From contig NZ_CBVJ010000093.1 in NCBI RefSeq assembly GCF_000513275.1, positions 1 to 24,000 of the forward strand: a DNA stretch of 24,000 nucleotides. The letters run 5' to 3'. The stretch is from Paenibacillus gorillae. Lineage in GTDB: Bacteria > Bacillota > Bacilli > Paenibacillales > Paenibacillaceae. A program made the position numbers and the translations under genes. Positions 1 through 10,665 of this stretch are shown here, piece by piece. The notes under the pieces were generated by a model that worked only from the letters and a program-made list of their open reading frames with translations, had not been told where the DNA came from and did no database searches. Numbering within the stretch: position 1 is the stretch's first letter; each line of letters opens with the position of its first letter.

Positions 1-236
1 AAAGAACGAAGCTAGCTTCGCTATTTAACGCAGGTCGGTTCGCAAATTATGCGGTATAGAACCCCATCTGGGGCGACTCTCCAGTATTTGCGAAGAAAAT
101 TTCGCTTTTGGAGAAGCTGCGTTCACCAGTTGCGAAGTTTGCTTCGCTGCAGCTTATATTGCCACTATTTTGCTCTCATACAGCGAACTTTGATTCGCTC
201 TTTTGCGAACCAGGTTCGCTATAGGGTAAATACTTA

Positions 237-270
237 CTAATCAAACGGTTCAATTCCGTTTGACTAGCCA
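237..270 (+). other. Hairpin resembling a tRNA acceptor/T-arm minihelix followed by CCA, inside repeat copy A
   Basis: ctaatca-aacgg / ttcaatt / ccgtt-tgactag, then cca. This is a 12-bp stem with one A.C mismatch and a 7-nt loop. GGTTCAATTCC matches the T-arm consensus GGTTCRANNCC. No D arm or anticodon arm is present, so it is not a tRNA gene. Confidence 0.4.
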
Positions 271-554
271 TATCCCGAGGTTTCCCCCGGAAATTCACAA
301 TATCATCAAGCCGGTTACCAAAAAACGAAGCAGCTTCGCTATTTAACGCAGGCCGGTTCGCTAATTATGCGGTATAGAACCCTATCTGGGGCCACTCTCC
401 AGTATTAACGAAGAGAATTTCGCTTTTAGAGAAGCTACGTTCACCAGTTGCGAAGTTTGCTTCGCTGTAGCTTATGTAAACACGATTTGGTACTTATATA
501 GCGAACTTTGATTCATTCTTTTGCGAACCAGGTTCGCTATAGAGTAAATACTTA

Positions 555-588
555 CTAATCACACGGTTTTATTCCGTTTGACTAGCCA
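555..588 (+). other. Second, more degenerate copy of the minihelix-like hairpin plus CCA, inside repeat copy B
   Basis: ctaatca-cacgg / ttttatt / ccgtt-tgactag, then cca. It sits at the same position in the unit as 237-270 and has one extra stem mismatch and an altered loop. Confidence 0.3.
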
Positions 589-1077
589 TACCCGAGGTTT
601 CCCCCGGAAATTCACAATACCATCAAGCCGGTTGCCAGAGAACGAAGAAGCTTCGCTATTTAACGCAGGTCGGTTCGCAAATTATGCGGTATAGAACCCC
701 ATCTGGGGCGACTCTCCAGTATTAGCGAAGAGAATTTCGCTTTTGGAGAAGCTACGTTCACCAGTTGCGAAGTTTGCTTCGCTGCAGCTTATGTAAACAC
801 GATTTGGTACTTATATAGCGAATCTTGATTCGTTCTTTTGCGAAGCAGGTTCGCTAATATACGGCAGAACACCCTAATACAACGCTACACCGGGCTCTGG
901 GAGCTGCGCCTGATAAGAAGTGTTTGTTAGGGCAAACGCCATACGTGCGTGGTTCTGACAGATTGGAGCATTAGTAATACCTTCATTTTAGGAGCCGCAG
1001 TTGAGAAGTTCACTAAATGTCAGTTTCTCTCTACTCACAATATCCGGCTCCTTCCTTACCATCGCCATGCTGGTTCG

Positions 1078-1684
1078 TTATTCAATGATACGAGTAACGG
1101 CCAGAGGTCCACGGTACATAATTCGGGTAAGCAGTAAAGCAAGCTCCTCGACCGGGAGGCTCATGCCACTGTGAATCCAGTGCGTTAACATGCCGATGTT
1201 GGCTGAGGTCATAAAAGCAATCAAATATTCTTTTGGAAAACTCGGATCGCGTTCGCCTACTAGTTTCATAAACGTCTGGTTGTACAAGCGCTCGGTCATA
1301 AATTCCCTGATCTGCATCGGAAACCGGGCATCCCCATTAGGTCCCAATATGACACGGCAAAAAATCAGCATGCTCGGCAAAATAATTAAGCACGTTCAAA
1401 CTAACTGGATAAATTTGATCCTTCTCGGCGTAGCGGATCATATCCAACGGATTCAAATGACTCATAGTCTCTGTAAGACCTACAAAAACCTCCTGTTTGA
1501 TCTGTTCCATCAGATCCGGCACATCCCGGTAATGCAAATAAAAGGTCCCCCGGTTAATTTCCGCCTTCTCGGTCAAATCAATTACAGTAACCCGTTCAAG
1601 TCCTCTTTCATCGACAAGCTCAAGCAAGGCTGTCCGAAGCAGACGCCTCGTTCTTTTTTTGCGCAAATCCGTTTTTTCTCCCAT
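1078..1684 (-). pseudogene. TetR/AcrR-family transcriptional regulator, split by a frameshift in a homopolymer
   Basis: Two overlapping minus-strand ORFs (1337-1756 and 1078-1380) read as the N- and C-terminal halves of one TetR-like protein. The N-terminal half, 'KRTRRLLRTALLELVDERGLERVTVIDLTEKAEINRGTFYLHY', is an HTH. The C-terminal half is 'ILGPNGDARF...LTHWIHSG'. The frames switch at the A6 run at 1359-1364 (T6 on the coding strand), and removing one base fuses them as '...YFAEHADFCRVILGPNGD...'. The likely start is the ATG at 1684, with SD aaggag 8 nt upstream. Confidence 0.75.
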
Positions 1685-1765
1685 CAGCCGAACTCCTTTT
1701 TTCAAATTAATAAACAGAGGAAACTCAAAGTGCCGAATACTCGACAAATGGAGCAAGATTGATTA

Positions 1766-4956: not shown

Positions 4957-5913
4957 ATGTTAAAAAGGATGTTGAAGTTGGTACTTTCCATTGCGGCTAT
5001 TTTATTCATCGTTATTACAGGAGCGAGCTTTTATTTCTACAATGTCGCGATTGCAAGGGATGATAAAAGCTTCCTTAACGGCAATCCCGATCTCGCTGTT
5101 ACTACAGCGGCTGCAGAGGCAGATGTTATCGACGGGGACGAGCATTGGTGGGAGAGACAGCTTTTCGAAGATTGGAAGCTACACTCCGAGGATGGCCTGA
5201 ACCTGCATGCTTATTATCTCACTGCACCTGCTCCTACCGATAAAACCGTCATTATTGCGCACGGTTATTCCGGCCAAGCCGTAACCATGGGCAAGTTGGC
5301 GCAAATGTATAGCGAGAAGCTGGGCTACAACGTTCTGTTGCCTGACGCCCGTGGCCATGGAAGAAGCGAAGGGCGCTATATCGGCTTTGGCTGGCCGGAG
5401 CGCAGAGATTACCTCGGATGGATTGCAAATGTGCTTGATCGCAGTGGAAGCAACTCTCAAATTGTGCTGCATGGCATCTCCATGGGCGGTGCGACCGTAA
5501 TGATGACCAGCGGCGAGGAGCTTCCGTCTCAAGTGAAAGCCATTATAGAAGATTGCGGCTATACTTCCGTACAAGATGAATTATCTTATCAGTTAAAACG
5601 GATGTATCGCCTGCCGTCCTTTCCGCTGCTGCATTCAACCAGCCTGTTGACCAAAATACGAGCCGGCTACGCTTTTAATGAAGCTTCAGCTTTAAAGCAA
5701 GTGAAAAAAACGGATACGCCGATGCTGTTCATCCACGGCGATGCGGACTTGTTCGTACCGACTGACATGGTCTACGAGCTGTACGAGAACGGCCCGGAGC
5801 ATAAGAAGAAGCTTTATGTCGTGCCGGGAGCCGGTCACGGCCAGGCTAGGAAGACCGACCCGGTCACCTATGACCGTGAGGTGTCGGAGTTTATCGGGGC
5901 ATATGTGAAGTAG
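4957..5913 (+). CDS. Membrane-anchored alpha/beta hydrolase (serine hydrolase; resembles, from memory, the Bacillus YqkD/YfhR group)
   Basis: The start was moved to the ATG at 4957, with SD agggagg 6 nt upstream. There is an N-terminal TM 'LVLSIAAILFIVITGASFYFY', the nucleophile elbow 'GISMGG', then 'HGDADLFVP' and 'GAGHG'. Confidence 0.85.
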   Translation: MLKRMLKLVLSIAAILFIVITGASFYFYNVAIARDDKSFLNGNPDLAVTTAAAEADVIDGDEHWWERQLFEDWKLHSEDGLNLHAYYLTAPAPTDKTVIIAHGYSGQAVTMGKLAQMYSEKLGYNVLLPDARGHGRSEGRYIGFGWPERRDYLGWIANVLDRSGSNSQIVLHGISMGGATVMMTSGEELPSQVKAIIEDCGYTSVQDELSYQLKRMYRLPSFPLLHSTSLLTKIRAGYAFNEASALKQVKKTDTPMLFIHGDADLFVPTDMVYELYENGPEHKKKLYVVPGAGHGQARKTDPVTYDREVSEFIGAYVK

Positions 5914-5920
5914 CTCAGCT

Positions 5921-6127
5921 TGAACTCGAATCGCTAAGCTCACCCTGATAGCATACTTCCGGGGTCGCTGCGTGATTCGGTTCATGCCGCTATTCTTGAT
6001 TCCATTGTTCCATCGCTTTCACGATGATTAAATGGATTGAATCTGCAAAAAATCGTCCTGAACTCGAATCATTACGCTCACCCTTGCTGCATCAGTCCGG
6101 GTCTCTACGCGTTTCGGTTCGCTCACC
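5921..6127 (+). repeat. Two diverged direct copies (~68 bp each, 138 bp apart) of a second short repeat
   Basis: 5921-5988 'tgaactcgaatcgctaagctcaccctgatagcatacttccggggtcgctgcgtgattcggttcatgcc' aligns with 6059-6127 'tgaactcgaatcattacgctcacccttgctgcatcagtccgggtctctacgcgtttcggttcgctcacc'. The word 'gctcaccct' occurs three times in the region 5937-6130. Confidence 0.7.
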
Positions 6128-6135
6128 CTTACCCG

Positions 6136-6353
6136 ACAACGAACCGGGTTCGTTAATTAGCGAAGGCTGATTCGCTGATTTGACTGTAAATCATGGATTT
6201 GAAGCTGCTCCTCAGCATTAGCAAAGAGATTTTCGCTATTGGCGAAGCTGCGTTCTTGAAAAGCGAAATTTAGTTCGCTGCAGCCGCTGCAAATGCCATT
6301 CGGCTCAGTAAGAACGAACTTTGATTCGTTCTTTTGCGAAGCAGCTTCGCTAT
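6136..6353 (+). repeat. Diverged dispersed copy (D) of the GCGAA/TTCGC repeat unit, in the same orientation as the array at 1-857
   Basis: It aligns by eye to unit positions ~6-222. It opens with the palindrome aacgaacc-g-ggttcgtt (6138-6154). It then has 'gcgaagctgcgttc...agcgaaatttagttcgctgcagc' and 'gaacgaactttgattcgttcttttgcgaagcagcttcgctat'. It lacks the minihelix/CCA module. Confidence 0.85.
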
Positions 6354-6487
6354 ATTGCTCAGCAGACCTAGTCACTGTCATAAACAGTGCCAGTGTCCTC
6401 CTTAAAGAGGTACAGCCCTGAGAAAAACAAAGCAGAACGGCCCTAAAAGCAACCTGCAAAGCATACAGCTTGCGGAAATTACTCTAT

Positions 6488-6530
6488 AAAGCACAAGAGA
6501 CTGCCTTCGCAGGCAGCCTCTTGTGCTTTT
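6488..6530. terminator. Strong stem-loop, possibly a bidirectional terminator
   Basis: aaagcacaagag-a-ctgcc / ttcgca / ggcag-c-ctcttgtgcttt, followed on the plus strand by 'ttttatcgttt'. It lies 46 nt beyond the stop of the minus-strand small ORF and downstream of repeat D on the plus strand. Confidence 0.6.
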
Positions 6531-6575
6531 ATCGTTTCACAGCCTTCATCAAATGTTGCGGAACGATAATTCTTC

Positions 6576-6749
6576 TTATCCGATAAATTGGTTAGCATGC
6601 ATCGTAACTTCCTCGATGCTCACATCTTTTATTTTCTTATCGCGAACATCTTTCCAGTTCTCATAATACTCTTGCTTCATATAGACATTCATATCGAATC
6701 TGCCCATGCGGAACATGACTCTATAACCGGTAATTTTATCGCTTGCCAT
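6576..6749 (-). CDS. Hypothetical 57-aa protein (below the ORF-track cutoff)
   Basis: My own translation of the minus strand is MASDKITGYRVMFRMGRFDMNVYMKQEYYENWKDVRDKKIKDVSIEEVTMHANQFIG. SD ggaggg (6761-6766) lies 11 nt upstream of the ATG at 6749, which is longer than ideal. The stem-loop at 6488-6530 follows. I recognise no family. Confidence 0.4.
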   Translation of the reverse strand: MASDKITGYRVMFRMGRFDMNVYMKQEYYENWKDVRDKKIKDVSIEEVTMHANQFIG

Positions 6750-7225: not shown

Positions 7226-7339
7226 TATTTTCACGATTTCATCCCATTCGTCATTGAAAAAATCTTCTACAGCACACTAACTTATTTTACCATCACCAAC
7301 GTGAAGTAGGCTATTGAAAATTAGAGTTTCCTCGTATAG

Positions 7340-7380
7340 AGCAAAATTTGACTCATTCTTTTACGATACAGGTTCGCTAT
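7340..7380 (+). repeat. Short degenerate fragment (E) matching the 3' end of the GCGAA/TTCGC repeat unit
   Basis: 'agcaaaatttgactcattcttttacgatacaggttcgctat' aligns with unit 182-222 'agcgaactttgattcgctcttttgcgaaccaggttcgctat'. Confidence 0.55.
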
Positions 7381-10369: not shown

Positions 10370-10581
10370 TCGAGAGCTTATAGGATCAACAGAAAACTTG
10401 TAGCTCATGGATGCTGTATGAGGTATACTATGGAAGTCGAAACGCGAATTTTGCGTCCGCTGGGGTCGGCCTCCTAACGCTGATGATGACAAGCCTTTAT
10501 GCAATTTTACCGCTTCTGTATAAGTTCACGAAGAAAGTAATGAAAGCCGTGAAGAAAATTACAAAAGAGGTGAAGAAAACA

Positions 10582-10665
10582 ATGAAAAAACTTGCTTACC
10601 CCGCTTTCGTATTAGCTGTTGTATTAGGAATTTCTGCCGATCCTACTTATAGACTAATCTACTGA
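10582..10665 (+). CDS. Candidate 27-aa peptide with a signal-peptide-like N-terminus
   Basis: SD agaggtga lies 8 nt upstream of the ATG at 10582. Translation is MKKLAYPAFVLAVVLGISADPTYRLIY. An intrinsic terminator follows about 40 nt downstream. It is the 3' part of track ORF 10411-10665, whose upstream ATGs lack an SD. Confidence 0.4.
   Translation: MKKLAYPAFVLAVVLGISADPTYRLIY

Follow-up and report, generated by a model that had tools for sequence, protein, structure and literature searches.

A helically phased palindromic repeat module, arrayed in tandem in Paenibacillus gorillae and dispersed between genes in related species

The DNA considered here (the window) is a stretch of 24,000 nucleotides from Paenibacillus gorillae, positions 1 to 24,000 of the forward strand of contig NZ_CBVJ010000093.1 (assembly GCF_000513275.1), and our subject is the palindrome-rich, non-coding tandem array with which it begins. 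An initial annotation, made from the letters of the sequence, had placed at least 2.7 tandem copies of an approximately 318-bp unit at positions 1-857, and Tandem Repeats Finder bears this out, calling positions 1-856 as 2.7 copies of period 317 with 91% matches and 0% indels. The tandem repetition stands, but the repeated entity is composite: alignment of the three copies resolves the unit into a palindrome-rich module of approximately 215 bp and a linker of approximately 95 bp. The array stops at about position 857, directly after the third module, and in the alignment similarity among the copies ceases past GGTTCGCTA. Its neighbours in the window are a split TetR regulator, an ABC-2/YhgE permease, a PCYCGC protein, hydrolases, and HPS/PHI. 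The modules carry inverted pairs (dyads) of the half-sites GCGAA and TTCGC, designated in order D1, D2, D3, C (the central dyad), D4, D5 and D6, with N5 or N6 giving the spacer within a dyad. The features of the array are as follows.

5-220, plus strand: module copy A, a full-length nhmmer match of 144 bits, also evident in the sequence and in the family alignment
6-21: dyad D1 of copy A, ACGAA-N6-TTCGC
28-43: dyad D2 of copy A, ACGCA-N6-TTCGC, degenerate
90-105: dyad D3 of copy A
111-126: central dyad C of copy A, GAGAA-N6-TTCAC
132-147: dyad D4 of copy A
183-198: dyad D5 of copy A
205-219: dyad D6 of copy A, with N5 spacing
221-323, plus strand: linker A, specific to the array and outside the dispersed family (only unit positions ~5-225 match other loci)
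324-538, plus strand: module copy B, nhmmer match of 148 bits
539-640, plus strand: linker B, specific to the array, from the three-copy alignment
641-855, plus strand: module copy C, the last in the array, nhmmer match of 147 bits

Within the array GCGAA starts at positions 90, 132, 183, 205, 450, 501, 523, 725, 767, 818 and 840, and TTCGC at positions 17, 39, 101, 143, 194, 215, 335, 357, 419, 461, 533, 652, 674, 736, 778 and 850. Copy A alone has 10 such pentamers in approximately 220 nt, where about 0.4 would be expected, so that the excess over chance reported in the initial annotation is confirmed; the five inverted pairs it had listed for this copy were likewise all found in place. The complete GCGAA-N6-TTCGC dyad occurs 8 times in the 24-kb window against an expectation of 0.17, a number attained by 0 of 100 shuffles. 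Linker A holds a small hairpin of its own, caaacgg-N7-ccgtttg at 243-261, and can be aligned solely with the orthologous array of Paenibacillus radicis, which is described below.

A consensus module and its information content were obtained from an alignment of 68 sequences. The consensus has 14 half-sites (GCGAA/TTCGC, allowing [G/A]CGAA and TTCG[C/T]) that form seven dyads grouped 2+3+2. On the left, D1 (GCGAA-N5-TTCGC) and D2 ([A/G]CGAA-N6-TTCGC) are followed by an unconstrained region, V1, of approximately 33 nt, which in the window subfamily is 44 nt; there follow D3, the central dyad GTGAA-CCTAGG-TTCAC, D4, a second region of approximately 33 nt (V2), and then D5 and D6, the last with N5 spacing. 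Little or no variation is seen in the half-sites, while the N6 spacers within dyads and the V1 and V2 regions carry little information or approximately 0 bits. The module is also regular along the helix. Its half-sites start at consensus positions 2, 12, 23 and 34, then 74, 85, 95, 106, 116 and 127, and finally 167, 178, 189 and 199, which follow a 10.35-bp period (resultant length 0.96), and the dyad centres lie 21-22, 42, 50-52, 61-62, 72-74 and 82-84 bp apart. The two length classes of module are separated by 11 bp, one turn of the helix, and the insertion lies at mirror positions of V1 or V2. From this lattice and the 11-bp step between length classes it follows that every site faces one side of B-form DNA. 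The module is nearly two-fold symmetric, in that its forward and reverse strands score almost equally against the family profile, and D1 and D6 (AGCGAAnCTGnTTCGCT) make up its two ends as terminal inverted repeats.

Members of this family lie at many other places. The family scan took one genome per species and looked for two GCGAA-N6-TTCGC dyads 24-28 bp apart; it found many loci in Paenibacillus sp. NPDC058174, P. radicis and Paenibacillus sp. NEAU-GSW1, where the counts are minima. Iterated nhmmer searches of these three genomes together with the window identified at least 67 full modules (204-215 bp) and about 50 or more partial modules, spread over 35 or more intergenic loci. When the 317-bp unit of the window was compared with the other loci, the module part alone matched, at 65-81% identity and on both strands. 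Modules occur singly or in arrays, in either orientation; array periods span approximately 225-490 bp, and every array has a linker of its own, module and local flank recurring together. At three loci (L037, L074 and L012) the D1-D2 or D5-D6 pair forms a sub-array by itself. Module ends are sharp, running from A[G/A]CGAA to TTCGCT in otherwise unrelated flanks. The flanking genes show no overall orientation bias (approximately 8 convergent, 7 divergent and 12 co-directional pairs). Direct repeats of the kind left by target-site duplication were absent from the 30-bp flanks of 67 copies, no transposase-like open reading frame (ORF) recurred in approximately 300 kb of flanking DNA, and no Y1 transposase was detected in that DNA by TBLASTN with approximate queries.

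The phage and plasmid collections contained no match to the window array or to an array of the 204-bp type. In IMG/VR there was no family member, only unrelated dyad arrays and pairs resembling REPINs, and the family is almost absent from the JGI metagenomes, in which a scan for D3-C-D4 returned two unrelated 21-bp tandem arrays. The family appears, from the genomes and collections scanned, to be confined to a small Paenibacillus clade comprising P. gorillae, P. radicis, sp. NPDC058174 and sp. NEAU-GSW1. Neither Rfam, nor comparison of DNA with the phage and plasmid collections, nor the searchable literature yielded a description of the family, so the statement in the initial annotation that the element was not recognised still holds. 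Among the readings offered there, that of a MITE-like (miniature inverted-repeat transposable element) or satellite-like element gains support from the dispersed, multi-copy nature of the module, its sharp ends, and its occurrence both singly and in arrays.

The array has a counterpart in P. radicis. At the orthologous position in that genome (locus L109), with the permease gene on one side and the TetR gene on the other, lies an array of period 318 (1.9 copies plus a decayed third), in which two modules are complete and a third survives as a decayed 3' end; the permease near the window array matches a P. gorillae protein at 100% identity and its P. radicis orthologue at 86%. Because this genome was assembled independently, the possibility raised earlier that the array might be an assembly artefact can be set aside, and the orthologous 318-bp array implies that the array is real, older than the split between P. 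gorillae and P. radicis, and variable in copy number. Module arrays at other syntenic loci across Paenibacillus species (L018/L105, L039/L065 and L089/L090) also differ in their numbers of full and partial copies, indicating that arrays expand and contract over time. Further family members, and a companion repeat that we call R2, lie downstream of the array in the window.

5960-6084, plus strand: full copy of R2, a repeat of approximately 124 bp (nhmmer; 15 copies over 7 loci)
6138-6351, plus strand: solo module of the same subfamily as the array (nhmmer, 138 bits), orthologous to P. radicis L109 14472-14686
7324-7380, plus strand: decayed D5-D6 fragment of a module, intergenic (nhmmer, E=2e-6 against model positions 167-223)

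The solo module is 79% identical to its P. radicis orthologue, within a syntenic block of 83-87% identity. The fragment at 7324-7380 lacks a counterpart at the orthologous P. radicis site, which suggests a gain or loss specific to one lineage.

These orthologous copies allowed us to ask which parts of the module are held constant. As a neutral reference we used four-fold degenerate sites in four flanking genes, whose identity across P. gorillae and P. radicis is 63%. In orthologous module pairs the half-sites are 93-99% identical, the intradyad spacers 70-85%, and the V regions 59-74%. Pooled over four independent orthologous pairs, 266/280 half-site positions (95%) are identical versus 178/264 (67%, near the neutral value) in the V regions (Fisher p = 1e-17). 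V-region identity falls to 50% between the window solo module and the array copies and to 21-32% between subfamilies. The V-region likeness of the orthologous pairs marks these copies as truly orthologous and drifting neutrally. In these copies, then, the V regions appear to drift at the neutral rate while the pentamers are held constant, and purifying selection seems to be limited to the half-sites and to act on their sequence, beyond any pairing. Near-invariant half-sites, free spacers, 10.35-bp phasing and constraint on half-sites only together lend support to another of the readings in the initial annotation, that of an array of putative dyad binding sites.

Protein coding, active or decayed, was rejected as an explanation. 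The only ORF proposed in the array, at 49-240, is open in copy A and is closed at the same codon by TAA in copy B and by TAG in copy C, the copies reading MRYRT.SGATLQY* around that codon. Stops occur in all six frames of the array and recur between copies, the array periods are not multiples of three, and stop-to-stop open frames through modules elsewhere are rare and inconsistent. The earlier argument that the array is non-coding was correct. The array sequence also holds no tRNA or tmRNA.

R2 has its own nested hairpin, possible ends GGGGTCGC/GCTCACCC, and no Rfam match; partial copies lie at approximately 5915-5950 and at 6085-6135, and further copies probably lie just upstream of the window start. 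It invariably lies upstream of modules of the 215-bp subfamily and points the same way, and the intergenic regions concerned are always convergent (in the window, at L030, L033, L058/L109, L074 and L086, and ahead of the array in P. radicis). The stretch that separates R2 from the module is unconserved across these loci, and R2 and module are accordingly separate units that co-localise.

Some observations concern the surroundings and similar dyads elsewhere. The TetR-family gene next to the array (1078-1756, minus strand) is broken in the window into two overlapping ORFs, TetR_N at 1337-1756 and TetR_C_8 at 1078-1380; its P. radicis counterpart is whole, at 201 aa, and the split in the window reflects either a frameshift pseudogene or a sequencing error. 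We rejected the idea that the array is the operator of this TetR gene: the TetR/ABC-2 promoter region, 1757-1862, is without a GCGAA dyad, and the array is 3' of the gene. A 21-bp tandem repeat of 2.8 copies with 72% matches, GAAGAAAATAATGAAAGACGT, is located at 10530-10587 of the window, in or near an ORF at 10411-10665. Among the matches listed by the same dyad-pair scan in other phyla, most are inverted pairs of GGGCGAA-N6-TTCGCCC hairpins tagged with GTAG/CTAC (at L001, L008, L013, L020, L035, L041, L091, L099 and others), which are REPIN-like and unrelated to the Paenibacillus family. On a phage contig from IMG/VR (L110, 3850-3945), five GCGAAATGTATTTCGC dyads spaced approximately 21 bp apart lie in AT-rich intergenic DNA ahead of a gene for a P-loop ATPase, and probably form a phage operator or origin array. 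Two metagenome contigs carry 21-bp tandem units that look like plasmid iterons or operators: six GCGAA-N6-TTCGC units upstream of ORFs resembling ribbon-helix-helix (RHH) and helix-turn-helix Rep proteins (L118, 65-200), and units with CGAAC-N4-GTTCG (L117, 90-175). The arrays on the unrelated contigs L118 and L110 show, as judged by their sequence context, 21-bp GCGAA-N6-TTCGC arrays in apparent use as iteron-like or operator-like sites.

We favour, at a probability of roughly 0.55, the reading that the window array is a local tandem amplification, three units long or more, of a single member of a hitherto undescribed family of interspersed palindromic repeats resembling REP (repetitive extragenic palindromic) sequences and BIMEs (bacterial interspersed mosaic elements), and that the repeat acts at the level of DNA as a phased platform of multiple sites for a dimeric DNA-binding protein. 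Such a protein, sequence-specific and probably able to oligomerise, would bind the half-site dyads cooperatively, and the bound module would be a compact nucleoprotein platform comparable to REP/BIME clusters, to iteron or centromere arrays, or to titration loci. Arrays would grow by tandem duplication of the module and its flank, through unequal recombination or slippage. Several points weigh on the other side. The binding of a protein to the modules is something that we infer, as are the consequences of that binding. In the window array D2 (ACGCA...TTCGC) and the centre (GAGAA...TTCAC) are degenerate in the copies, leaving fewer intact sites than in the consensus. The copy number per genome and the distribution along the chromosome are lower bounds, and gene conversion among copies could partly maintain the conservation of half-sites, in place of selection at each locus.

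One further point against the platform comes from the spacers of D3 and D4. In a subset of modules these are exact reverse complements (seven distinct 6/6 pairs, z = 5.4), which turns D3-C-D4 into a near-perfect palindrome of approximately 60 bp, and this points to pairing within a single strand, which a model of pure double-stranded DNA binding does not need. We read the complementarity as that of a DNA-level hairpin or cruciform, arising by birth as a perfect palindrome or by template-switch correction and decaying later, because most modules have lost it yet kept their half-sites. A module-length hairpin was rejected, as V1 and V2 are not complementary and the minimum-free-energy folds are not one long stem.

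The same complementarity is some real covariation, and so it belongs also to the case that the module is a structured or cis-acting RNA, transcribed for instance as a 3' untranslated region (UTR), whose seven hairpins would serve stabilisation, termination or protein binding. Compared with their shuffles, single modules do give the better folds (z = -4.1, -5.8 and -3.0), and the 215-bp subfamily with R2 lies in convergent intergenic regions directly downstream of genes at all 6-7 loci. High folding scores are to be expected here, however, because palindrome-rich DNA in general produces them, and the remaining evidence goes against an RNA. Searches of Rfam (Rfam 15) gave no match for 1-1100 at the gathering threshold or at E<1, and only chance miRNA and sRNA matches for 5900-6600. 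The RNAalifold consensus reaches -19 kcal/mol over 228 columns, of which the covariation term is -0.32 kcal/mol, and the stems are invariant in sequence, not covarying. Matches to promoters and terminators in the modules are at chance level, and modules are found either way round, between divergent, convergent and co-directional genes alike. Finally, stem positions that depart from Watson-Crick pairing on the top strand are A.C (64) versus G.T (7) in D1/D2, and G.T (37) versus A.C (14) in D5/D6. These mismatch types favour opposite strands in the two halves, such that a single transcript would be penalised in one half from whichever strand it was read, and this mirror symmetry fits a two-fold symmetric DNA element. 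We therefore consider a functional RNA improbable, and the suggestion of a multi-hairpin RNA family in the initial annotation finds no support.

The main rival to the platform is a selfish, non-autonomous element resembling a MITE or REPIN, whose half-sites and palindromic ends would be recognised by a transposase or recombinase encoded once elsewhere, with the arrays as a by-product. REPINs are thought to be both selfish element and host platform, and the two readings are likewise compatible, not exclusive. A selfish element would account for discrete units of approximately 204-215 bp with sharp ends and palindromic termini in unrelated flanks, and for the likeness of subfamily members in unconstrained parts (V regions 50% versus 21-32%), which indicates past copying. 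Published REP clusters, too, are often reiterated in tandem with their flanking DNA (PMC3733652). The missing target-site duplication in the flanks of 67 copies counts against this rival, although it is compatible with mobility of the HUH/Y1, IS110-type, or serine or tyrosine recombinase kinds. Against the selfish element, no transposase recurs in the approximately 300 kb of flanks, where the approximate TBLASTN queries also returned no Y1; no conserved GTAG/CGTC tag stands in the REP position; and the phage and plasmid collections contain no member of the family. Moreover, orthologous half-sites are kept while V regions drift, whereas dead selfish copies should decay evenly. We regard this explanation as fairly unlikely. 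Far weaker is the case for an iteron-like or centromere-like site of an integrated plasmid, integrative and conjugative element (ICE) or prophage, with the dyads as leftover origin or partition sites. Dyads recurring every 21 bp are what iterons and partition sites typically show, and the unrelated contigs noted above carry 21-bp GCGAA-N6-TTCGC arrays near Rep-like and RHH-like ORFs (L118) or phage early genes (L110). The distribution of the modules largely refutes it, however: dozens of dispersed loci per genome lie among housekeeping genes with no rep, par or integrase genes adjacent, loci are syntenic between species, and no plasmid or phage record in the collections scanned shows similarity. 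We consider it very improbable.

If a protein does occupy the platform, one candidate can be named. The LexA operator of Gram-positive bacteria, the Cheo box, is CGAAC-N4-GTTCG, and the D dyads, CGAA-N6-TTCG, coincide with its four outermost bases on either side, with the spacing unchanged. In 50 of 68 modules GAAC-N4-GTTC is present in the central dyad, and the full CGAAC-N4-GTTCG appears once in the 68. The differences are that D1 and D6 have N5 spacing and that the centre in the window array is GAAG-N4-GTTC, and we therefore take the likeness as a lead and not as membership. It is doubtful, but conceivable, that a global repressor uses the modules as phased operator arrays throughout the genome; the prime candidate would be LexA or a LexA-like paralogue because the dyads have the form CGAA-N6-TTCG with GAAC-N4-GTTC at the centre. 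Were this so, dozens of platforms, each with seven sites, would hold the repressor in store, titrate it, or seed higher-order structure of the nucleoid, and a chromosomal "decoy" repeat family kept by selection across a clade would be unprecedented in Bacillota. Other candidate binding sites were not adopted: the Spo0A box TGNCGAA mismatches at the G2 position, ARG boxes have the same geometry but an AT-rich centre that is lacking here, Rex sites have N4 and not N6 spacing, CRP/FNR sites are in the wrong register, and a type I restriction site CGAA-N6-TTCG is contradicted by the N5 dyads.

Much is known of interspersed palindromic repeats in Proteobacteria, as REP, BIME and REPIN sequences, and little in the spore-forming Bacillota. 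What is unusual in the Paenibacillus family is the combination of a fixed lattice of 14 half-sites at 10.35 bp, persistence at orthologous sites and apparent selection on half-sites only, and from this combination we predict a specific protein partner. Its identity would separate domesticated binding platforms from long-lived selfish DNA in Gram-positive bacteria. There is also a practical consequence, in that module arrays, whose copy number varies from species to species, can disrupt assemblies made from short reads.

The modules can be placed among known systems by comparison. They are not a CRISPR array, as the initial annotation had correctly concluded: the unit is 317 bp, compared with repeats of 24-48 bp separated by unique spacers of about the same length, and the V regions repeat within the array and are orthologous between species. 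Iteron arrays, centromere arrays of the parC/parS type, and datA titration loci share with them several sites (putative in the modules) for one protein, whole-turn spacing (21-22 bp) and a cluster of approximately 200 bp. The whole-turn spacing characteristic of iterons is present here (10.35 bp, resultant length 0.96; dyad spacings of 21-22, 42, 51 and 62 bp). Those systems, however, are single-copy beside rep or par genes or have a known binder, whereas the modules are dispersed in dozens without an adjacent partner gene, and each of their sites is itself a dyad. With MITEs such as bcr1 of the Bacillus cereus group, BOX, ERIC and Correia/NEMIS, the modules share a length of 100-300 bp, a non-coding, dispersed and intergenic character, inverted-repeat ends, and modular sub-parts that can be amplified (the D1-D2 and D5-D6 sub-arrays). 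They differ in the lack of target-site duplication, of a recurrent transposase-like ORF nearby and of a match to an Rfam family, and in a conservation that is concentrated in 14 phased pentamers and not in the termini.

The closest likeness is to REP, BIME and REPIN sequences, which are likewise extragenic, multi-copy, palindromic and without target-site duplications, and are passed on vertically and keep their orthologous positions. Host proteins, IHF and gyrase among them, bind BIMEs. Both kinds of repeat occur singly or in clusters (at 35 or more intergenic loci here), and REP clusters, like the module arrays, are commonly reiterated in tandem along with flanking DNA (PMC3733652). There are differences as well. 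REPINs flank a RAYT gene, present once and coding for a Y1/HUH transposase, while approximate queries found no Y1 homologue in approximately 300 kb of module loci. As for the conserved GTAG/CGTC tag, GTAG follows D4 and CTAC precedes D5 in a minority of copies, with low information and on the 3' and not the 5' side of the hairpin. The stems of the Paenibacillus modules are only 5-6 bp, unlike those of REP and BIME sequences, and the family belongs to Bacillota and not to Proteobacteria. Finally, where REP and REPIN sequences consist of one or two hairpins of 20-40 bp, the Paenibacillus repeat is a fixed, helically phased module of seven dyads and 14 half-sites.

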